A stretch of DNA of 64,000 bases from an uncultured bacterium (lineage in GTDB: Bacteria; Armatimonadota; HRBIN16), in NCBI GenBank assembly GCA_964579145.1, contig CAZOGB010000013.1:154-64153 (forward strand), given 5' to 3'. The translations under genes were made by a program, and so were the position numbers. The notes under the pieces are model-generated. The model searched no databases. It saw nothing but the letters and a program-made list of their open reading frames with translations, and was not told the DNA's origin. This document shows positions 16,545-38,763 of the stretch, in pieces (position 1 is the stretch's first letter; every line of letters begins with the position of its first letter).

Positions 16545-16572
16545 ACTGGGAGGGGAAACATCCCCTCCCAGT
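16545..16572. terminator. 12-bp perfect hairpin between convergent ORFs (probable terminator)
   Basis: ACTGGGAGGGGA-AACA-TCCCCTCCCAGT; no clear U-tract. Confidence 0.6.
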
Positions 16573-16576
16573 GTTG

Positions 16577-16753
16577 CTATCGCGGCGCGCCCTCTAGAGG
16601 CGGTATTTTGGGTGCAGGGTAGTGGCTTCGCAGACTTTTTTCATCGGTACGCGGAGCAGGTGCCATCCCTGACCGCATGAAAACTATGATAAACCCGACG
16701 ACAACTACTGCGATGGCCACTGCTACCCAGACAGGACTAATCTGCCTTCTCAT
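16577..16753 (-). CDS. Small single-TM Pro-rich protein (58 aa, not in ORF track), paralog of 33732-33935
   Basis: Translated by hand: MRRQISPVWVAVAIAVVVVGFIIVFMRSGMAPAPRTDEKSLRSHYPAPKIPPLEGAPR*. RBS AGGAGG overlaps the DUF1559 stop. Confidence 0.8.
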   Translation of the reverse strand: MRRQISPVWVAVAIAVVVVGFIIVFMRSGMAPAPRTDEKSLRSHYPAPKIPPLEGAPR

Positions 16754-16762
16754 GTGCCTCCT

Positions 16763-17473
16763 CTACAACCCCGGACAGGAGTTATCCGATGACCAGGGAT
16801 AGTAAATGTACAGGTATCTACCCGTGCAGGGATTAGTGGAACGGTCATTCCACCAGCCCTCCAGCACGTTGCGGGATACGTACTTGGCATGAGTATCAAT
16901 GAAAGTGACGTTCATGCCATCCGTATGACGGAAAGCCCAATGGCTTGGACCCCATGTTGCATTGTAGCCAAGCCCCTGATCATTATCGTCCGCGTCGTAG
17001 ACCTCGAAGAACCAGATACGCTCCGCAGGACGCTTGATCAGATCGAGCATGAACTCACTGACCGTGTTGTCCGATTTGATGTAGATTACGGCACCATACA
17101 CGTTAATGCCGTAACTCTTGTAGTACCACTCGGGAACCCAATCATATGGGTCGGTATTCCAAGGTTTCCTGGGCACTGCATGGCTTGGGCAGCGAAAGAT
17201 GTCTTCATTCTTCACATACGGCAGAATAAACCCAGACCATGTATTTGGAAAATGGGTAAACTGCCAGTATGTGTCCCAGATAGACATGCCATCATAGTCT
17301 TCTACATACATTCGCGCTCCCGTGCCAATCTGCTTCATGTTCGAGAGGCACGAGGTCTGCCTTGCTTTTTCCCTGGCTTGAGCGAAGACAGGGAACAGTA
17401 TCGCCGCCAGTATCGCGATAATCGCGATAACCACCAGCAGCTCAATCAGAGTGAACCCACGCTTGCTTTGCAT
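16763..17473 (-). CDS. Prepilin-type N-terminal cleavage/methylation protein, DUF1559 / H-X9-DG family
   Basis: G|[42 protein letters not shown]; C-terminal H-X9-DT variant ([14 protein letters not shown]). Confidence 0.92.
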
Positions 17474-17502: not shown

Positions 17503-18603
17503 TTATGTCGTTTTGGCTGGTGCACACGATTCGCGCAGAACCACCTGCGCTGGTACTTCCACCCGATGGGGCACAGGCTTGCCCTCCATCATGTCCATCA
17601 GCAAGCGCACACCCGTCTGCGCCATCTGTTCGAGGTCTACCCGCACCGACGAGAGAGGCGGCTGCATGGTGGTGCAGAAAGGCTCGTCGTCAAAGCCGAT
17701 GAGCGACAGGTCTTCTGGCACCTTCACGTTCATCTCTGTAATCGCGGGATAGGCGAACGCCAAAAGGATGTCCGACGCTCCCACGATCGCCGTCAGGGGT
17801 GGACGTACTTCCAGCAGACGCCTCAGTGCCTCTTGCACCGTCGGGCGGGGGCGGCCATGTTGCATCACCCAGTTCGCTTCGGGAGTGATGCCGGCTTCCT
17901 GCAAGGCGTCCATATAGCCCTCGAAACGCTGGGCGTAATGAGGCATATAGTGTCCGGTAAAGAAGCCGATGCGCCGATGTCCCAGGCGAATCAGCTCACG
18001 CACCGCCTGTCTGGTGCCGTCGCGATTTGCCTGCACCACGCGGGGAACAGGCACTTCTGGCTCCGCATCCACAATCACCACCGGATAGCCCCGTCTTTGC
18101 ATCCACAGCAAGCCCTCTTCATGCAAGGGACCGAACACCAGCGCGGCATCAAAGCGGTGATGACGCTCCCACTCCTGCAGGTAACTGGCGGATGCGCTCC
18201 GGTCGGGGAAGTGAAGCAGAAGGCTCCCCCACAGGTGCCGGGCGCACTCTTCCGCCGCCGCGTGCAACATGCGCATCTCGCCCACCGAGTACGAGGGGCG
18301 TGCGCCGGGTATCTGCCAGGTATACATGAGCGCAACCAGATGCTGTTGGACGGGCTGTTTGGGGCGACTGACCGCAATCACCGTGCCGCGGCGCGTCCGC
18401 TCCACCACCCCCCGTTGTGCCAGCAGGGTCAGGGCACGCTCGGCGGTCTGGTAGCTGATGCCGTAGTGGCGGGCAATCGTGCGGGCGGACCACAGCGGTG
18501 TGCCTGGCGTCAGCTGCCCGGCGTTTACCGCGGCTTCCACCTGCTCCACGATTTGCACGTAGAGCGGCGTGCGCAGGTGAGGGTTCAGGTGTAGCGGTAT
18601 CAT
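17503..18603 (-). CDS. GntR-family regulator with LacI-type sugar-binding effector domain
   Basis: PLYVQIVEQV..PGTPLWSARTIARHYGISYQT winged HTH; GHRRIGF, PEDLSLIGFDD, PPLSSVR. Start ATG 18603 is downstream of the promoter. Confidence 0.88.
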   Translation of the reverse strand: MIPLHLNPHLRTPLYVQIVEQVEAAVNAGQLTPGTPLWSARTIARHYGISYQTAERALTLLAQRGVVERTRRGTVIAVSRPKQPVQQHLVALMYTWQIPGARPSYSVGEMRMLHAAAEECARHLWGSLLLHFPDRSASASYLQEWERHHRFDAALVFGPLHEEGLLWMQRRGYPVVIVDAEPEVPVPRVVQANRDGTRQAVRELIRLGHRRIGFFTGHYMPHYAQRFEGYMDALQEAGITPEANWVMQHGRPRPTVQEALRRLLEVRPPLTAIVGASDILLAFAYPAITEMNVKVPEDLSLIGFDDEPFCTTMQPPLSSVRVDLEQMAQTGVRLLMDMMEGKPVPHRVEVPAQVVLRESCAPAKTT

Positions 18604-18628
18604 CGTTTCGGTCCTTGCTATGACTGCT

Positions 18629-18641
18629 ATGGTAATACCAT
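18629..18641. promoter_or_regulatory. GntR-type palindromic operator ATGGTA-A-TACCAT
   Basis: Perfect inverted repeat just downstream of the -10 of the gntR promoter; fits the GT-N-AC GntR box pattern. Confidence 0.65.
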
Positions 18642-18648
18642 TGCTTAC

Positions 18649-18677
18649 ACTATACAGTATCACGCTGTGTTTGTCAA
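18649..18677 (-). promoter_or_regulatory. sigma70 promoter TTGACA-N17-TATAGT for gntR
   Basis: Minus-strand TTGACA 18677-18672 and TATAGT 18654-18649. Confidence 0.75.
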
Positions 18678-18999
18678 GGGCTTTTGGCTCGCTGATGTAC
18701 GGGTTTTTTCGCTGGCTCGTCAATGCGTTTTGGATGACGATTTTAGAATGCAGAAAGACGATTTAGGCAATGACGAGCGTGGCCTGCCTGGCGGCTGTCG
18801 TCGGCTCAGGACGGCAATTGTGTTGATTTAACCGGTGTGTGCTATGATTTTTGAGGAGATTGAACGCGACGTGCTATGATAACGGTTCGCTCACGGTATC
18901 TGGCAGGACGACAGAGATGAGCCTCTCGTCCCTGATCGGTACAGAAACACCTCTCCGGAAAAGCTATGAAAAATTGTTGATGTTCCCAGCAAAAAGGTA

Positions 19000-19029: not shown

Positions 19030-19085
19030 GAAAATACGCTTAAGCCCATAATCAGGCGCAAACTGCTCAAAGGAGGTGCACAGTC

Positions 19086-20021
19086 GTGAAGCGTGGTTTT
19101 ACGCTCATTGAGCTGCTGGTGGTCATCGCGATAATCGCGATACTGGCAGCCATCCTGTTCCCCGTGTTCGCGCAGGCACGGGAGAAAGCTCGCCAAGCTT
19201 CCTGCCTCAGCAACTTCAAGCAGGTGGGCACGGGCGTGATGATGTACGTGCAGGACTACGACGAGACCTTCCCCTACAACCGCTTCATCGGTCCCGGAGG
19301 GGCTACCTGGTCTACCTGGAAATACGCTATCCTGCCGTACGTCAAGAATCTGCAGGTGTATGAGTGCCCAAACGCTCGGGCGCAGATAGCGCGTATGCTC
19401 GGCGACAACGAGCGGGCATGGCGCGGATCCAAGATGGATGAGACGTGGGCGCACTGTCATCCCGAATCGCCGTGGGTAAGAAGTGACCCCTACTGCGACA
19501 TCCCACGCAGTCAGAACCTGTGGTTCCCGCGAGGATACACGGTAAACGGCGCGGTGTTTAACCTCTCGGCGTGGATTGGCGGGGCGAACAATCCGCGCAA
19601 GCTGGCTGACCTCGACGCTCCCGCCGAGACCATCTGGCTGCAGGATGGGCGCAACTACGAGCCGGACACCGGTCCCTGGGCAGTCGTGCGATGCTGGTGC
19701 GCGCCTCCGGGAGACCCGCTCGGCGGAGACGTGCCCGATTCCAGCCCGAACAACCCCTGTGGCTTCGTGCGGCAGTATGGATGGCTGATTAACCATCTGA
19801 AGGGCACGCACTTCATTTTCGCGGATGGACACGTGAAGTGGACGCGCGTGCACAGCGCCATCGCCAGCAACCTGTGGAAATGGGCTTGCTTCCAGCGGCC
19901 GGGCGAACGCACCTTCTGGGGAGACCCGCGCGACTTCCCCACTGACGGCAGCTGCCGACAGCCGGACCCGGATACCTGCCGCAGCGTTGCCAGTGCGCTG
20001 GCCGCTTACGAATACCGCTAA
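19086..20021 (+). CDS. Prepilin-type DUF1559 / H-X9-DG protein, Cys-rich (311 aa)
   Basis: G|[10 protein letters not shown]-terminus; [16 protein letters not shown]; 10 Cys; RBS AGGAGG. Confidence 0.92.
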
Positions 20022-32274: not shown

Positions 32275-33687
32275 ATGCGATTCGGCAAACCGCTTCTAAC
32301 CTTTGTGCTGGCCGTGCTGGTATCCACGAGCGTTTTCGCTCAGATAAAGGTAAGCGGCACCTGGCGACTGCGAATCGAGGACTGGCAGTGGTTCAACGTG
32401 CCCGGCTTTGATACCGATTACACCTATGCGCATTCCCTCCTGCGTCTTGCGCTGACGGGCGAAACGGGTACAGCTCGGTGGAGAGCTGAACTGGCGCAGG
32501 CGGGGCTGTTCGACGTGCCCGATGCGGTGGCCCCACCGCCTGCAGGTCAGCTGGGGCTGGGTGGAACGCTCAAAGCGGTGAACGGCAACAACAAAGCCAG
32601 CCTGTTCGTGAAGCAGCTGAATGCAGAGTGGTCGCTGAACTGGGGCAGTCTGGAGGTTGGGCGTATGGAGTTCGGTGATGGGTGCGAGGTAGCGGTCAAA
32701 GACGCTGGATTGAACTGGCTACATGCCAATCGTATCAGCAACCGTCTGATTGGTCCTTTCGGCTTCTCTCCTGTCACCCGCTCGTTTGATGGGGTGCTGT
32801 TGCAGACGGGCGACAACTCCGGGCGATGGCTTTTCTTCGCCGCCTATCCCACGCAGGGCGCGTTTGACCTGAACGGCAACCCCACGTTGACCAATGTGAA
32901 CCAGCTGTATCTTGCCTACGCCCGTGCCCAGGAGACGAAGAATACGAGCTTTGACTGGCGTCTGTTCTGGGGCTGGTATCGCGACAGCCGCAACGTGCTC
33001 AAGGTAGACAACCGCCTGCTGGCGGCGCGGCAGGCAGACAGCGAGGACATCCGCGTGTGGACGCTGGGCGGACACTGGGCGCAAGTGTGGAACAGTGCCG
33101 CGGGACGAACCGACCTGCTGTTGTGGGGCGCTCTGCAGGGCGGTGAGTGGGGACAGATCAGCCACTCGGCATACGCGCTGGCGGCGGAAGCGGGCTTCCA
33201 GTTCCCGACGCTGTGGAAACCGTGGGTGCGTGCCGGCTATTACGTTGGCTCCGGCGACAAGGATAACACCGACGACCGCCACGAGACCTTCATCGCTGGC
33301 ATGAACACGCCTCGCCTGTATGCGATGACACCCTTCTACAACACCATGAACCTGGAGGACGCCTTCGTGCAGGTGATGTTCACACCGCATCCGCGCTGGT
33401 CGGCGAGGGTGGACTATCACCGCCTGCGCCTGAACCGCTCTTCCGACCTGTGGTATGCGGGAGGCGGTCCTTTCGACAACACCAGCTACGGTGTGGTGGG
33501 GCGTCCTTCGGGAGGCAATCGCGACCTGGCGCATCTGTTTGACATCTCGCTGAACTACCGCGCCAGCGATAGCCTGCAGATTTCGGTCTACAAGAGCTGG
33601 ATTCAGGGCGGCAGCGTCCTGCGCTCGGTGTATCCGGCTGGCGAGGACGGAGGGTTCTTCTTCGTCGAGGCGAACTATCGCTTCTAA
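32275..33687 (+). CDS. Outer-membrane beta-barrel, alginate export (AlgE)-like family
   Basis: Signal peptide MRFGKPLLTFVLAVLVSTSVFA; alternating beta-strand pattern; RSFDG; SGDKDNTDDRHETF; C-terminal NYRF. RBS GGAGG before ATG 32275. Confidence 0.72.
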   Translation: MRFGKPLLTFVLAVLVSTSVFAQIKVSGTWRLRIEDWQWFNVPGFDTDYTYAHSLLRLALTGETGTARWRAELAQAGLFDVPDAVAPPPAGQLGLGGTLKAVNGNNKASLFVKQLNAEWSLNWGSLEVGRMEFGDGCEVAVKDAGLNWLHANRISNRLIGPFGFSPVTRSFDGVLLQTGDNSGRWLFFAAYPTQGAFDLNGNPTLTNVNQLYLAYARAQETKNTSFDWRLFWGWYRDSRNVLKVDNRLLAARQADSEDIRVWTLGGHWAQVWNSAAGRTDLLLWGALQGGEWGQISHSAYALAAEAGFQFPTLWKPWVRAGYYVGSGDKDNTDDRHETFIAGMNTPRLYAMTPFYNTMNLEDAFVQVMFTPHPRWSARVDYHRLRLNRSSDLWYAGGGPFDNTSYGVVGRPSGGNRDLAHLFDISLNYRASDSLQISVYKSWIQGGSVLRSVYPAGEDGGFFFVEANYRF

Positions 33688-33697
33688 GGCACAAAGC

Positions 33698-33725
33698 GCA
33701 GGGGCAATCTGCCGATTGCCCCTGC
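33698..33725. terminator. 12-bp perfect hairpin between convergent genes (REP-like)
   Basis: GCAGGGGCAATC-TGCC-GATTGCCCCTGC. Confidence 0.65.
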
Positions 33726-33731
33726 CAGTTT

Positions 33732-33935
33732 CTATCGAGGGGTTTTCGCCGCCGGAGGGTAGTCAGGCGTCGGCTTGTAGGAACCACCCTGTTCCATCCA
33801 GGGCGGTACGCCCGGTGTGTATTTGACTCCCCTCGGTGGGCGTGGAGCGCTGAGGTAGTAATATGCTCCAAGAATCAGCCCAATCACCACCACGAGGAGC
33901 ACCACTGCAAGCGCGGGACTGACTTCCCGTTTCAT
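33732..33935 (-). CDS. Small single-TM Pro-rich protein (67 aa), paralog of 16577-16753
   Basis: MKREVSP + TM + Pro-rich tail; RBS GAGG; 15 nt after the DUF1559 stop. Confidence 0.82.
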   Translation of the reverse strand: MKREVSPALAVVLLVVVIGLILGAYYYLSAPRPPRGVKYTPGVPPWMEQGGSYKPTPDYPPAAKTPR

Positions 33936-33950
33936 GGAACCTCACCCCAA

Positions 33951-34703
33951 TTACTGCCTCTTGTCCCACATGCCGTTGGGCCAGGGGCCGTTGGGCGGGT
34001 CGCGTCGGGCAGGGTCGCGGGTCTGGTTGCCGATAGGTTGCGTGGTCTGGTCGCGGCGCATCCACTTCACATGCCCGTCGCACATGGCGTAGTTACTGCC
34101 CTGCGAGTGCATCGTTGCGCCGCCACCCTGCATGTTGAACTCGTTGTAATCCCAGAAGACCTCCGTTGCCCAGCCGACACTCCACTGGTGATACCAGTTG
34201 GGGCGCTCTGCCATGAAGATGGTGGTCGCTGGGCTAACGATGGTGGATTCGGCGGAAGCGGCAGGCGACATCAGGAAGCTGTAGGAGTTGGGACCCCAGC
34301 CCCAGTCGCTCTCGGGCCAGCGAAAGTTCTGGCTGTAGGTGACCGGAATGGCAGGTTTGGTGTTGTCCACGGCATCCTGTCCGCGCCCCCAGGCGTCGCT
34401 TGGGCATCGCCACATCTGCTGGTTTTTGACGTAGGGGTGTATCTGCTGGTGCCAGGGCACCCATGTGGGATTCCACCCCCATGTCCAGCTGTGCACTTCG
34501 TCATAGTCCTGAATGTACATCAGCTCGCCCAGCATGATTTGTTTCATGTTGGACAAGCAGGTAGTGGAGCGTGCCTTTTCCCGTGCCTGTGCGAACACCG
34601 GGAACAGAATCGCCGCCAGAATGGCGATAATGGCGATGACTACGAGCAGCTCAATGAGGGTGAACGCTCGCGCATCGTCTCGCCGTTGAGCAGTGAGTTG
34701 CAT
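33951..34703 (-). CDS. Prepilin-type DUF1559 / H-X9-DG protein
   Basis: A|[32 protein letters not shown]; [25 protein letters not shown]. Confidence 0.92.
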
Positions 34704-34727: not shown

Positions 34728-35771
34728 TTATGGTGTACCGGATGCAGATGCTGCACCCAGCGTTGTCCCTTGTTGAATCTGCACTGGGATAGTCACGTCG
34801 GCGTATGTTTCCTGTTCACCTGTGATGTAGCGGTGCAGGAGATTCACCGCCGCTTCGGCTAGTGCGTCAAGGTCTACGTGCACTGACGCGGCGATGTGGC
34901 AGGTGGTGGCGGGCCAGTGTAACCCGTCGTAGCCAACCACCGAAAGCTGCGCAGGCACTTGTATACCCAGCTGGTCGCAGTCTTCCAGAACACGATACGC
35001 CAGCCAGTCACGCCAGCAGAACACCGCCGTTGGAGGCTCCCGCTGGCTCATCAGGTGGGCAAGCACCCCATGCGGCTCACTCCAGTAGCTGGCGATACGG
35101 TGCTCGGGAAGGTCGGCGCCAAGCTCGCGCAGGTAGTTCTGCAGAAGGCGAACGCGCGGAACGGCATCGCGAAAGTCGCTACCCTCCTCGATGATGGCAG
35201 CTACACGCCGATGCCCCAGCGATACCAGCGTCTGAGCAACCTGCTGCATCCCGCTTTCCATATCATCTCTGACCGACGGCAGGATGCCCGCTTCGTCGCG
35301 CGCGTTAATCAGCACGACCGGCAGGCGTGAACGCCTGAGCAGGGGCAAAAGGGGGTCATCGGGAAGAGGGGCAAACAGCAACACGCCATCCGCCCGACCG
35401 CCGTTGAGGAAGCGATAGGTCTCTTCGGGTGGGCGGCTGAAGTCGCAATGCACCAGCACATCATAGCCCAGCTTGCCCGCCGCGCGCTCGATGGCGGTGG
35501 ACAGCCTGTCCATATACAGGTCGTTGACGGTGCGCAGGCGGAAGGCGTTGAAGAAGGAAAGCACCTGCGTGCGCCCTCGCTGCAGAGAGCGTACCAGCAG
35601 GTTGGGGCTGTAGTCCAGCTCCTGCGCCGCCTCTTTCACGCGTTGGCGCGTCTGCTCGGAAATGCGGTGGCTGGTTGCCTTGCCGCTGAGCACCAGCGAG
35701 GCGGTGGTACGGGATACACCTGCCCGCCTGGCAACCTCATCTAGGGTTGTTCGCAACCTGCGCTTTGACAT
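34728..35771 (-). CDS. LacI-family transcriptional regulator
   Basis: TTLDEVARRAGVSRTTASLVL HTH; LGHRRVA; VPAQLSVVGYD. Start ATG 35771. Confidence 0.92.
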   Translation of the reverse strand: MSKRRLRTTLDEVARRAGVSRTTASLVLSGKATSHRISEQTRQRVKEAAQELDYSPNLLVRSLQRGRTQVLSFFNAFRLRTVNDLYMDRLSTAIERAAGKLGYDVLVHCDFSRPPEETYRFLNGGRADGVLLFAPLPDDPLLPLLRRSRLPVVLINARDEAGILPSVRDDMESGMQQVAQTLVSLGHRRVAAIIEEGSDFRDAVPRVRLLQNYLRELGADLPEHRIASYWSEPHGVLAHLMSQREPPTAVFCWRDWLAYRVLEDCDQLGIQVPAQLSVVGYDGLHWPATTCHIAASVHVDLDALAEAAVNLLHRYITGEQETYADVTIPVQIQQGTTLGAASASGTP

Positions 35772-35782
35772 GGGTTCTTTTC

Positions 35783-35800
35783 TGCTAAAGTACTTTAGCA
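35783..35800. promoter_or_regulatory. LacI-type operator O1: TGCTAAAGTACTTTAGCA (perfect 18-bp palindrome)
   Basis: Lies between the -10 and the start of lacI. Confidence 0.75.
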
Positions 35801-35802
35801 AT

Positions 35803-35831
35803 ATTATAGCCCACTCTTTCTCTGCTGTCAA
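35803..35831 (-). promoter_or_regulatory. Consensus sigma70 promoter TTGACA-N17-TATAAT for the lacI-DUF1559-small TM operon
   Basis: Minus-strand TTGACA 35831-35826 and TATAAT 35808-35803. Confidence 0.8.
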
Positions 35832-35990: not shown

Positions 35991-37451
35991 ATGTCTGCTG
36001 TAACTGTAGAGGTAGACACGGGACGGCGCTACCAGGTGATAGAAAACTTTGGGGCGTCGGGCGCATGGAGCATAGACCCCATCGGTAAGGAGTGGTCGGA
36101 GGCGAACAAGAACGCGCTTGCTGACCTGCTCTTCTCGCGCGAAAAGGGCATTGGATTATCGCTGTGGCGGTTCAACATCGGCGCGGGAGGAGCGCTCACC
36201 GACCAGCTATGGGACCCCTGGCGGGGTGCAGAGGTGTTCAAAGCCAGCGAGAACGCCGATTACGACTGGAGCAAACATGCGGGACAGCAATGGTTCCTGC
36301 GCGCCGCCAGAAAACGCGGGGTAGAGCGGTTCCTCGCCTGCGTGTACAGCCCACCCATCTGGATGACCAAGAACGGACATGCCCACTGCGACAAACAGTC
36401 CGGCTCCACGAATCTCAAGCCTGGCTATGAACAGCCTTTTGCCCGTTTCCTCACCGATGTGCTGGAGCATTTCGCCAGAGAGGGACTGCCTTTTCACTAC
36501 ATCAGCCCGGTCAACGAGCCGAACTGGGAGTGGGAAGGCGGTCAGGAAGGCTGCCGATATGACAACGACGACCTGAAGCGAGTGATTCACGCCCTCTATG
36601 CCGAGGTTCGGTCTCGCAGGCTGTCCACCCAAATCGTGGTGCCGGAGGCAGGCGAGCTGGTCTCCCTGCTGGACGACGAGTTCTATCGTCGCTGGGCGGG
36701 CATTGATGACCCGAAAGCTGCCCACACCCACGGCAACCGCTCCAGAGGCTGGGGGATGTATGGGCAGTATATCCGGGAACTGCTGGGCGATGCCGAACTG
36801 CGGCGCAGGATAGGCAACCGTATCTGCGCACATGCCTACTGGACTGATTCCAGCCTGCATCTTCTGCGCGACCTGCGTCGCACGGTGCAGGAAAACATCG
36901 CGCGTTACGCGCCGGGCGCACAGTACTGGCAAACGGAGTACTGCGTGATGGAGCACCGACGTGACCTGGGCATGGATACCGCTCTCCGTGTGGCTCGGGT
37001 GATCCACTACGACCTGACCGCGGGCAACGCCTCAGCATGGCACTGGTGGCTGGCGGTTTCGCCCTATGACTACAAAGACGGGCTGATATACACCGACTAC
37101 CGGCGCACCGGTCAGCAAAACATCCTGCCCTCCAAAACGCTGTGGGTGCTGGGGAACTTCAGCCGCTATCTGCGTCCGGGCGCCATCCGCGTACACGCCG
37201 AACCCTCCGAGGTAGAGGAAGACCTGCTGGTTTCCGCTTATATCCAGTCCACCAGTCCGCGCTTTGTGTGCGTGGTGGTCAATCGTGAGTCGCAGGAGGT
37301 TACCCTCAAACTGAAAGTGGACCGCAAGGTAGATACGCTCCTTCCGGTAGTGACCTCCGCCGAACACGACCTGGCCCCGCAGCCGGCGGTCAGAGCCTCC
37401 ACAGGGACAGTGATCCCCCCGCGCAGTGTGGTGACGTTAATTCACCGGTGA
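35991..37451 (+). CDS. Glycoside hydrolase family 30 (Glyco_hydr_30_2 type), no signal peptide
   Basis: NFGASGAW, GLSLWRFNIGAG, SPPIWMTKNG, catalytic NEP and TEY, ASAWHWW, FSRYLRPG. Confidence 0.88.
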   Translation: MSAVTVEVDTGRRYQVIENFGASGAWSIDPIGKEWSEANKNALADLLFSREKGIGLSLWRFNIGAGGALTDQLWDPWRGAEVFKASENADYDWSKHAGQQWFLRAARKRGVERFLACVYSPPIWMTKNGHAHCDKQSGSTNLKPGYEQPFARFLTDVLEHFAREGLPFHYISPVNEPNWEWEGGQEGCRYDNDDLKRVIHALYAEVRSRRLSTQIVVPEAGELVSLLDDEFYRRWAGIDDPKAAHTHGNRSRGWGMYGQYIRELLGDAELRRRIGNRICAHAYWTDSSLHLLRDLRRTVQENIARYAPGAQYWQTEYCVMEHRRDLGMDTALRVARVIHYDLTAGNASAWHWWLAVSPYDYKDGLIYTDYRRTGQQNILPSKTLWVLGNFSRYLRPGAIRVHAEPSEVEEDLLVSAYIQSTSPRFVCVVVNRESQEVTLKLKVDRKVDTLLPVVTSAEHDLAPQPAVRASTGTVIPPRSVVTLIHR

Positions 37452-37521
37452 AAAACGCAGGAAATATGCGCCAGCGCAGGTAAAATTAGGCTGTATCCGG
37501 CAAGGGAGGCTGGTAACAAGG

Positions 37522-38763
37522 ATGTCCAGGCGTAAGTCCAAAATCATCGGTACAGCGCAACCTGCGGAGGGGACCATTCGCCTGCTGGAGCCGGCGCGTG
37601 GGGTTGCAGACCCTGATGACCCGCATGTTCAACAGGTGGCGTCGCAGTTGCTGACGCTCTCGCAGGAGGAGCAGATAGCGGCGGCACAGTGGATGGGTTC
37701 ACAGCCCGATTACGTTGCGCTGGTGGCTTGTCTGCTCCATAGGATAGGGGTCAGTGGCGCGGTGCGTCGCGTGCTGAAGCGGGCGATGTTCGAACTGGAT
37801 CGACAGGGCGTACAGGTCGCACAGGTGTACTCAGTAGTGAGTTCAGACCGTGAAGACACTCGCAGGTCCGAGCAGTGGGTGACCGAAGAGGTGTTTGCGA
37901 GTGTGTTCTACGGATTCAGCAGCGACGTGCATCTGCGATTCTTCATGCGCCACCCCGTAGAGGGACGGGCGGCATTCCTCCTCGAGGTCACCGGCGGCGG
38001 CTACCTTGGGCTGGCACAGTTTGTGGATAGACAAGTCGATGAATTGCACCACGAGTGCCTGACCTACACGTATAATGCGCTGCTGCCGGGGCGCGAATCG
38101 GAGATCGAAGGCAACATAGGCATGTTTTTTACGCCAGTACCTGTAGACTGGGCAGTACAGGTGGTCAACCGGGCACGTCAACGGAACCTGCAGGAGCACC
38201 AGGAATTACATCCCCATGCCGCCTTCTACTGGGGTCGCCTGCCTGCGCCGCCAGATCCTCCAGTGCCCATGCCTGTCGATTCCATCCCGGACGCAGAGAC
38301 GGACTGGGCACTGTCCCCTTTGATGGGCAACCAGCCGGAGCGCGAAGCACCCCAGCCGCTCCTGCTGATGCTGACGGGATACATACCTCCATCAGAAGTG
38401 CTTGCTGAAGAGATGACGCGCCAGATGAAGCAGATGCAGAGCAGACTCATCCTGACCGAGCAGGCAGAGCGAGACCGGCTTGCTCAGGTGATGGACAGAG
38501 TCGCCCAGCAACTTCTGCCTGAAAAGTTTCGAGGATGGCTGCAAGAAATACTTCCCGTCTACGGGAGCGTTGCTTTGCTGGCTGGCGACCGTCAAACCGC
38601 GGTATGGTGCAAGGCACTCTGGCGCGAGCTGACCGAAAGGCGTGATAAACCCTTCTGGGATACTCGTACAGCATCGCTGTTGATCGCTATGTCATTGTCG
38701 GTATTGCTGTCCGAGATAGAAACGGCTGAGGGAGGTTTCGCTAATGACACGCCACTTGCATAG
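37522..38763 (+). CDS. Hypothetical protein (413 aa)
   Basis: RBS GGAGG; long ORF overlapping the next gene; no recognised motif. Confidence 0.75.
   Translation: MSRRKSKIIGTAQPAEGTIRLLEPARGVADPDDPHVQQVASQLLTLSQEEQIAAAQWMGSQPDYVALVACLLHRIGVSGAVRRVLKRAMFELDRQGVQVAQVYSVVSSDREDTRRSEQWVTEEVFASVFYGFSSDVHLRFFMRHPVEGRAAFLLEVTGGGYLGLAQFVDRQVDELHHECLTYTYNALLPGRESEIEGNIGMFFTPVPVDWAVQVVNRARQRNLQEHQELHPHAAFYWGRLPAPPDPPVPMPVDSIPDAETDWALSPLMGNQPEREAPQPLLLMLTGYIPPSEVLAEEMTRQMKQMQSRLILTEQAERDRLAQVMDRVAQQLLPEKFRGWLQEILPVYGSVALLAGDRQTAVWCKALWRELTERRDKPFWDTRTASLLIAMSLSVLLSEIETAEGGFANDTPLA

Follow-up and report, generated by a model that had tools for sequence, protein, structure and literature searches.

Two short open reading frames (ORFs) in a stretch of DNA from an uncultured bacterium of the Armatimonadota (lineage HRBIN16) each closely follow a gene for a DUF1559 protein. 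Do they encode proteins, and is each product a dedicated partner of the DUF1559 protein next to it, as the initial annotation had supposed? The stretch, hereafter the window, comprises 64,000 nucleotides (assembly GCA_964579145.1, contig CAZOGB010000013.1, positions 154 to 64,153), and the draft genome from which it derives has 3.68 Mb and 60% GC. The question reaches beyond this locus: prepilin-like proteins of the DUF1559/H-X9-DG type are among the largest families for which no function is known in Planctomycetota, Verrucomicrobiota, Lentisphaerota and Armatimonadota, with tens to >100 copies per genome. We demonstrate that the two ORFs are protein-coding genes, and there is strong support that they belong to a new, previously undescribed family of bitopic membrane microproteins centred on the Armatimonadota. 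Tentatively, with a probability of roughly 0.45, we propose that these are membrane-anchored, paralog-specific accessory partners, each aiding its cognate pseudopilin for a machinery resembling type IV pili or type II secretion systems (T2SS).

A family of single-pass microproteins

The elements that define the two genes are the following:

16577..16753, minus strand: gene for the 58 amino acid (aa) microprotein, stop included; MRRQISP, a transmembrane (TM) helix and a Pro-rich tail ending in Arg
16757..16762, minus strand: Shine-Dalgarno sequence AGGAGG of the 58-aa gene, directly next to the TAG stop codon that ends the pilin-like gene 16763-17473
33732..33935, minus strand: gene for the paralogous 67-aa microprotein; MKREVSP, a TM helix, YYY and a Pro-rich tail ending in Arg

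The product of 16577-16753 is MRRQISPVWVAVAIAVVVVGFIIVFMRSGMAPAPRTDEKSLRSHYPAPKIPPLEGAPR (58 aa). Its ATG lies 9 nt past the TAG stop of a gene with N_methyl and DUF1559 domains (16763-17473), and its Shine-Dalgarno sequence, if read as GAGGAGG, shares one base with that stop. The gene 33732-33935, with the product MKREVSP...KTPR (67 aa), starts 15 nt past the DUF1559 gene 33951-34703 and also has a Shine-Dalgarno site. Both proteins contain a single strongly hydrophobic stretch of 19-26 residues and a tail with 22-30% Pro, and both genes end in CGATAG. YTPGVPPWMEQGGSYKPTPDYPPAAK is an example of a tryptic peptide expected from them. In both window pairs, the pilin gene, the spacer and the microprotein are in one frame with one to two stops between them (16763-16753; 33951-33935). 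Across the genome, 6 of 18 pairs are arranged in this way. This equals the chance rate and gives no sign of programmed read-through; the shared frame in the window is probably a coincidence.

Comparison with orthologs established the coding status. Orthologs of the 67-aa ORF are present in nine genomes of the same genus with a nucleotide identity of ~82-92%. Residues 23-61 of the protein (GAYYYLSAPRPP(K/R)GVKYTPGVPPWMEQGGSYKPTPDYPP) show only isolated substitutions among these orthologs, and synonymous sites are saturated. The ratio of non-synonymous to synonymous substitution rates (dN/dS, Nei-Gojobori) is 0.04-0.11 in the proposed frame and rises to 2.0-4.8 in the two alternative frames. For the 58-aa ORF, four genomes of the genus contain orthologs, with 57-58 aa; they are separated by an indel of one codon that preserves the frame and by conservative changes, and SHYPAPK(I/V)PPLE is kept. 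When the ORF is compared with its most divergent full-length ortholog, the differences in frame are 36 synonymous and 32 non-synonymous; off frame they are 9-11 and 41-54, respectively.

A hidden Markov model (HMM) of the N-terminal motif and the TM helix converged on at least 28 paralogs in the source genome, including the 58-aa protein (E = 2e-9) and the 67-aa protein (E = 1.3e-12). Nearly all of the 28 have a GGAGG-type ribosome-binding site 4-10 nt ahead of the ATG. Family members are 52-116 aa long with one hydrophobic segment each. The consensus head M(K/R)(K/R)E(V/I)SP is followed by a Val/Ile/Ala-rich helix of 19-26 residues, then by two to three aromatic residues and Arg or Lys, i.e. 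an aromatic belt with a basic residue, and finally by a tail of 25-85 residues that usually contains 16-35% Pro as well as Gly. Heads are alike among paralogs; tails are unrelated among paralogs and nearly fixed among orthologs. The two ORFs are present on the minus strand behind N_methyl and DUF1559 genes, the initial annotation was right that they are genuine genes and mutual paralogs with a shared layout, and their resemblance is far above chance.

The C-terminal residue is Arg in 24 and Lys in 3 of the 28 members, compared to a genomic background of 17-20% for C-terminal Arg (p ~1e-13). We considered a nucleotide motif as the cause, given the CGATAG end of both window genes. However, the terminal Arg is written with all six Arg codons and ahead of all three stop codons, so that selection acts on the residue rather than on a DNA motif. 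It also persists among orthologs as the preceding residues change (KTPR, STTR, DTRR, PSHR).

Longer members carry extra motifs. Those of 95-116 aa (C4:90591-90878 and others on C78, C64, C15, C8 and C68, all outside the window) share a helical motif sGGDxxKLTPEE(R/K), and a third microprotein subgroup has the common motif I(Q/M)NNPNMPPQAK. In the long subgroup (GGD..LTPEE), 4 of 9 members matched PF13801 below threshold (best E = 8e-4, 20 bits versus a cut-off of 29.2), and CpxP and Spy from the PDB appeared at E = 0.7-2.4. The LTXXQ motif of the CpxP/Spy/Metal_resist proteins (PF13801/PF07813) is not found in the two window proteins. These also lack a lipobox ([LVI][ASTVI][GAS]C) and contain no Cys at all. 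The domain and motif tests that we ran did not place the microproteins among lipoproteins, TonB or the CpxP family.

Elsewhere in the genome, a lipobox (IAGC, LTGC) is present in just two partners. These mini-lipoproteins with Pro/Gly-rich tails, one of which ends in RR, replace the TM microprotein after two pilin-like genes outside the window:

C10, 13 nt after the pilin-like gene 36938-37771: mini-lipoprotein ORF
C15, 60 nt after the pilin-like gene 33623-34450: mini-lipoprotein ORF

This replacement suggests that the type of anchor, TM helix or lipobox, is interchangeable. Together with the faint CpxP/Metal_resist likeness of the long subgroup, the same position of the mini-lipoproteins favours an extracytoplasmic tail.

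The family is concentrated in the genus of the source genome. A profile search of whole genomes detected 13-27 copies per genome within the genus (13 genomes), where the pairing with pilin-like genes is conserved; the remaining genera of the family have 1-6 copies, and further families of the phylum have 0-7. A word-indexed protein search retrieved 82 small proteins from Armatimonadota or Chthonomonadetes metagenome-assembled genomes (MAGs), and each name given was 'hypothetical protein'. An exhaustive search of 1.84 billion cluster representatives yielded 741 clusters of 50% identity at E <= 1e-3. The best 150 of these are 47-130 aa long with a match beginning at residue 1-8, save a few longer proteins. 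About half of 225 proteins from both searches end in Arg. A locus search with the 67-aa protein yielded only four close loci, in Chthonomonadaceae and Chthonomonas MAGs, which are the closest named relatives of the window.

The genes had been described as unannotated. This holds for the 58-aa protein, whose exact sequence is absent from ~15 billion predicted proteins, but not fully for the 67-aa sequence, which is present among them and whose orthologs have been deposited as 'hypothetical protein [Armatimonadota bacterium]'. In Pfam-A and NCBIfam no model scored above its cut-off, and the sub-threshold matches were TM-like and differed by member. The accessible portions of the literature on DUF1559, H-X9-DG and SBP_bac_10 gave no sign of such a microprotein partner.

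Three-gene units with pseudopilin-like genes and sugar-type regulators

The source genome contains 71 ORFs with a prepilin motif, or 89 if profiles are used. A scan beside all DUF1559 genes for further microproteins was strongly positive: every one of the 28 HMM members has a pilin-like neighbour, and ~18 small anchored ORFs of the same design were found in addition. Of 60 pilin-like genes, 23 are followed by a small ORF that encodes a hydrophobic segment near its N-terminus, whereas the same is true of just 18 among 2686 other genes (Fisher test, p = 9e-30). Many of these 18 are LacI genes that are followed by a microprotein and then by a pilin-like gene. With divergent single-pass partners and the two mini-lipoproteins included, a small anchored neighbour is present at 46 of the 89 pilin-like genes. 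The microprotein and the pilin-like gene are co-directional with gaps of 3-62 nt. The position behind DUF1559 genes that the initial annotation had emphasized was confirmed in part: microproteins do occur downstream (~18 of the 28), but also upstream (~10), and about half of the pilin-like genes have none. The pairing extends to distant relatives, since four of the six metagenomic members whose surroundings were inspected directly adjoin an N_methyl and SBP_bac_10 gene.

Regulators of the LacI or GntR type with a periplasmic-binding protein (PBP) fold are the third component. Directly behind 25 of the 31 LacI/GntR-PBP regulators in the genome, a pilin-like gene lies on the same strand, so that almost the whole LacI repertoire is wired to pseudopilin-like and not directly to catabolic genes. 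A small partner is found at 22 of the 25 regulator-linked pilin-like genes versus 21 of the 64 others (p = 3e-6). In this genome the pair is mostly the distal part of a three-gene unit that consists of a LacI/GntR-type regulator, a pseudopilin-like gene and the microprotein, with its own strong promoter and a terminal hairpin. In the window, two such units comprise, besides the microprotein genes:

16548..16569, strand not assigned: GC-rich hairpin GGGAGGGG-AAACAT-CCCCTCCC, just beyond the stop of the 58-aa gene at the operon end, read from the sequence
16763..17473, minus strand: prepilin-type DUF1559 (SBP_bac_10) pseudopilin-like gene, 236 aa (PF07963, E = 1e-9; PF07596, E = 1.8e-9; TIGR02532)
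17503..18723, minus strand: regulator with GntR helix-turn-helix and periplasmic-binding fold (LacI-type sugar-binding), maximal ORF (PF13377, E = 8e-36; PF00392, E = 2e-11)
18649..18677, minus strand: promoter-like TTGACA-17-TATAGT (11/12 matches) heading regulator, pilin-like gene and microprotein
33698..33725, strand not assigned: terminator-like hairpin with a 12-bp stem, between the 67-aa gene and a convergent porin-like gene
33951..34703, minus strand: prepilin-type DUF1559/H-X9-DG pseudopilin-like gene, 250 aa (PF07596, E = 4e-10; PF07963, E = 7e-9)
34728..35831, minus strand: LacI-family regulator, maximal ORF (PF00356, E = 3.5e-16; PF13377, E = 7e-23)
35803..35831, minus strand: perfect consensus promoter TTGACA-17-TATAAT (12/12) heading LacI gene, pilin-like gene and microprotein

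Both pilin-like proteins match TIGR02532, and the product of 33951-34703 additionally matches TIGR04294 with 30.5 bits, which is over the cut-off of the model. The promoters, one ahead of each regulator, are of the sigma-70 type and near-consensus or perfect. Since they sit inside the longest-ORF extensions of both regulators, the actual starts are probably the downstream ATGs at 18603 and 35771; translation of the LacI-family gene from 35771 begins with MSKRRL. The hairpin at 16548-16569 failed the T-run rule of the terminator scan.

The genome encodes four PilC/GspF-type platform proteins and one prepilin peptidase, the machinery that pseudopilins need. Two of the platform genes are located ~2-4 kb from a cluster of regulator, pilin-like gene, microprotein and second pilin-like gene (C18:45632-51607).

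Further observations concern the window cassettes themselves. The GC content of the 58-aa gene (0.55) and of its pilin-like gene (0.50) is below that of the window as a whole (0.59) and of the regulator next to them (0.63). Orthologs of the 58-aa cassette occur in only 4 of 12 other genomes of the genus, and those of the 67-aa cassette in 9. The 58-aa cassette (16577-17473) looks like the more mobile or more recently exchanged one. A third DUF1559-type gene (19085-20021, plus strand) is divergent from the GntR-type regulator and has a small anchored ORF on neither side.

A putative cognate partner and its alternatives

One-to-one, co-directional adjacency in both gene orders, own ribosome-binding sites, co-duplication and selected paralog-specific tails together form the signature of a cognate partner. 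Co-duplication is indicated by the correlation between the similarity of microprotein heads and that of the pilins (Mantel r = 0.29, p = 0.009). This signature suggests that the variable tail recognizes something specific to each pseudopilin paralog. The selected C-terminal Arg and the invariant tails of orthologs point to specific peptide recognition. The earlier suggestion of a dedicated DUF1559 partner is thus supported as far as linkage, ortholog-invariant tails and covariation of heads and pilins are concerned, but not in its minor-pilin-like version.

We envisage that the microprotein would be made together with its pseudopilin once the matching sugar derepresses the operon. It would insert with the N-terminus inside and the C-terminus outside, which would place its TM helix beside the hydrophobic N-terminal helix of the pseudopilin in the cytoplasmic membrane. 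The extended paralog-specific tail could then contact the variable periplasmic head of the cognate pseudopilin, possibly with the C-terminal Arg as the anchor point. Such a contact would hold, stabilize or prime the pseudopilin for the type IV pilus or T2SS-like machinery. The working logic would be similar to that of TfpX/Y/Z of Pseudomonas, with a far smaller and unrelated protein.

As a surrogate for the complexes, AlphaFold2 (AF2) was applied to natural read-through fusions of the window pairs, with stops read as Gly. The fusion of the 58-aa pair (14 fused rows) gave a mean predicted local distance difference test score (pLDDT) of 45.6, and the model was unusable. For the 67-aa pair (47 rows, shallow alignment of the tail) the mean pLDDT was 69, with values of 88-96 for the microprotein helix (263-285). 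We dropped one alignment of free microproteins together with fusions because MAFFT had put the TM helices of the microproteins onto the N-terminal helix of the pilins. The pilin helix was the only match of the fusion model in a Foldseek search of the PDB, and pilin N-termini were the only matches of the DUF1559 protein in a phmmer search of the same database.

Several results weigh against a cognate partner. The tail in the model of the 67-aa pair had a pLDDT of 45-53, no strands and no confident docking; with a low-confidence tail in the AF2 fusions, physical binding is something we infer. Tails and pilins showed no signal in a mirror-tree comparison (r = 0.04). The presence of a partner is unclustered on a tree of 70 pilin-like paralogs (23 changes versus 22.6 +/- 2.1 after shuffling). 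As to binding, the fusion models, the tree and the mirror-tree comparison are neutral. No small partner is present at 43 of 89 pilin-like genes. The positive-inside rule does not decide the topology, as +2/-1 charges were counted in the N flank and +2 to +3 in the C flank. Several other Armatimonadota genomes contain many DUF1559 candidates from a first, unscored look and zero members detectable by the HMM. Two of the six distant members (L037/L038 4001-4225; L046 2501-2791) are not beside a pilin gene. Overall, it is genomic association that supports the partner, with interaction, expression and topology all predicted. As a side observation, both of the distant members without a pilin gene adjoin a gene for a zinc-dependent alcohol dehydrogenase (ADH_N/ADH_zinc_N).

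Among the alternatives, the first to consider is a tether or spacer of the envelope, and we regard it as unlikely. Like a miniature TonB or Braun lipoprotein (Lpp), the microprotein would combine an anchor with a rigid polyproline rod, and its C-terminal Arg would contact a component of the cell wall or outer membrane, so that the pseudopilin apparatus or the envelope is positioned without any binding to the pilin head. TonB also has a membrane anchor followed by an extended periplasmic Pro-rich segment, and Lpp is very small with a functionally important basic residue at its C-terminus. The resemblance extends to the single N-terminal anchor, the tail of 25-45 residues with 16-35% Pro, the selection for a C-terminal basic residue at the amino acid level, the use of a lipobox in place of the TM anchor in two cases, and a size close to the 58 aa of Lpp. 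However, a generic spacer would not need tails that are paralog-specific and strongly conserved per ortholog group, and the one-to-one linkage to individual pilin paralogs suggests a specific partner. Lpp is cross-linked to peptidoglycan via a terminal Lys, whereas the microproteins end in Arg. The Pfam search returned no TonB C-terminal domain or any other domain, and the microprotein ends after its Pro-rich tail.

Somewhat less likely again is a small membrane regulator of a sugar regulon that modulates a transporter, as SgrT, AcrZ and MgtS act on E. coli transporters, or that sequesters or relays to the LacI/GntR regulator. The tail might then be cytoplasmic and the pilin-like gene a mere neighbour. 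Such a role would agree with the presence of the microprotein in 22 of 25 regulator-linked modules, with strong dedicated promoters of operons that look autoregulated, and with a positive-inside count that, for many members, is slightly in favour of a C flank in the cytoplasm. Yet 21 partners lie beside pilin-like genes without a nearby regulator, distant members retain the pilin neighbour and not the regulator, and no transporter gene is consistently adjacent. In addition, the mini-lipoprotein equivalents imply an extracytoplasmic tail.

A more elaborate scheme, which we consider improbable, sees regulator, DUF1559 pseudopilin and microprotein as a modular, substrate-specific device of the Armatimonadota envelope, 'bindosome'-like or for glycan capture, that has been duplicated dozens of times. 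The paralog-specific Pro-rich tail, including the selected Arg at its end, would sit in the site of its own pseudopilin for ligands or assembly (the H-X9-DG region) as a tethered pseudo-ligand or gate until displaced by the cognate carbohydrate or the assembly machine, and the microprotein would act as a switch coupled to specificity.

It is even harder to reconcile the data with the idea, an extension of the minor-pilin-like option in the initial annotation, that the microprotein itself is a pilin of a minor or atypical kind, which would carry an unusual class III signal, be processed by prepilin peptidase and be built into the fibre. The composition of the hydrophobic helix is similar enough for alignment onto the pilin alpha-1 helix by MAFFT, the VSP(V/A)V start is reminiscent of the N-termini of archaeal pilins, and 1 of 25 scanned members had a sub-threshold match to archaeal Pilin_N (E = 1.8e-4). 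In the other 24 scanned members, however, Pilin_N was not matched, nor in any of the 16 in A1. The class III signal of PF07790 ([KR][GA] before the cleavage site) was not found, as the residue at -1 would be Glu. The microproteins lack Gly/Ala at -1, F/M at +1 and Glu at +5, and the tail has no globular pilin head in the AF2 model. Neither window microprotein matches PF07963 N_methyl or TIGR02532 (G|F/M-x-x-x-E motif), in contrast to both neighbouring pilin-like proteins; their starts, MKRE or MRRQ followed by (V/I)SP, contain no G-F. Because the prepilin cleavage and methylation motif is missing, the microproteins are not pilins.

Finally, ORFs without protein function, arising by chance or of importance only for translational coupling or for termination where the operon ends, might be suspected from their very short length, the low-complexity tail and the absence of the 58-aa sequence from the protein collection, but this reading has practically no standing since the substitution pattern (low dN/dS with saturated synonymous sites, values >2 in the other frames, an in-frame indel among the 58-aa orthologs, amino acid-level selection on the C-terminal residue) contradicts it, as do the 741 clusters of similar small proteins and the ribosome-binding sites of their own.

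Comparison with known systems and implications

If the microproteins act as cognate partners, TfpX, TfpY and TfpZ would be the nearest functional analogue of the family. These FimB-like proteins of P. aeruginosa and other Pseudomonadota are required for optimal pilus assembly without being part of the fibre (PMC11841053). An interaction with the pilin has been proposed, and their variable periplasmic C-terminus is thought to confer pilin specificity (PMC11841053). Like the microproteins, they are encoded beside a pilin gene, are membrane-anchored with a conserved TM part and a variable C-terminus, and are not pilins themselves. TfpY-like accessory proteins, however, have 170-245 aa, three N-terminal TM helices and a periplasmic domain with a mixed beta-sheet (PMC11841053), in contrast to the 52-116 aa, the one TM helix and the Pro/Gly-rich tail of low AF2 confidence in the microproteins. 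No sequence similarity between the two was detected. They also serve a major type IVa pilin in another phylum, whereas the microprotein has a pseudopilin-like protein of the DUF1559/H-X9-DG type as its neighbour. Since TfpX/Y/Z combine three TM helices with a folded domain, all within 170-245 aa, the microprotein family is not a member of that group.

A one-line remark on Planctomycetes mentions small genes for signal-peptide proteins or lipoproteins that flank N_methyl and SBP_bac_10 (DUF1559) genes (PMC8567305). There, too, a small envelope-targeted protein is encoded beside individual DUF1559 paralogs, and the two mini-lipoproteins of the source genome occupy the same kind of position next to DUF1559 genes. 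By description, the planctomycete partners are set apart by a lipobox or a type I signal from the microproteins with their uncleaved N-terminal TM helix and KKEVSP.

PilN/PilO and GspL/GspM share with the microproteins a short cytoplasmic N-terminus, one TM helix and a periplasmic remainder, and they act with pilins or pseudopilins in the inner membrane. Unlike the microproteins, they are single-copy machine components of 150-400 aa with ferredoxin-like periplasmic domains and are encoded in the operon of the machine instead of once for each pilin paralog. The only match to these alignment proteins was a non-significant one to GspL_C (E = 0.21).

The 741 clusters add an expanded microprotein family that is partly missed by gene callers and covered by no curated model. 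Selection on a C-terminal Arg at the residue level and low-complexity tails that are invariant among orthologs are unusual among small membrane proteins. For the DUF1559 family, a conserved one-to-one partner would offer a concrete binary interaction with built-in cognate and non-cognate controls and hence an experimental handle. Likewise, the defined three-gene unit under sugar-type repressors links the DUF1559 family to carbohydrate sensing. In a distant MAG (L035 3293-6077), a pseudopilin-microprotein pair is directly followed by a glycoside hydrolase of the GH10 type and by genes of sugar metabolism, which fits a link to carbohydrate use.

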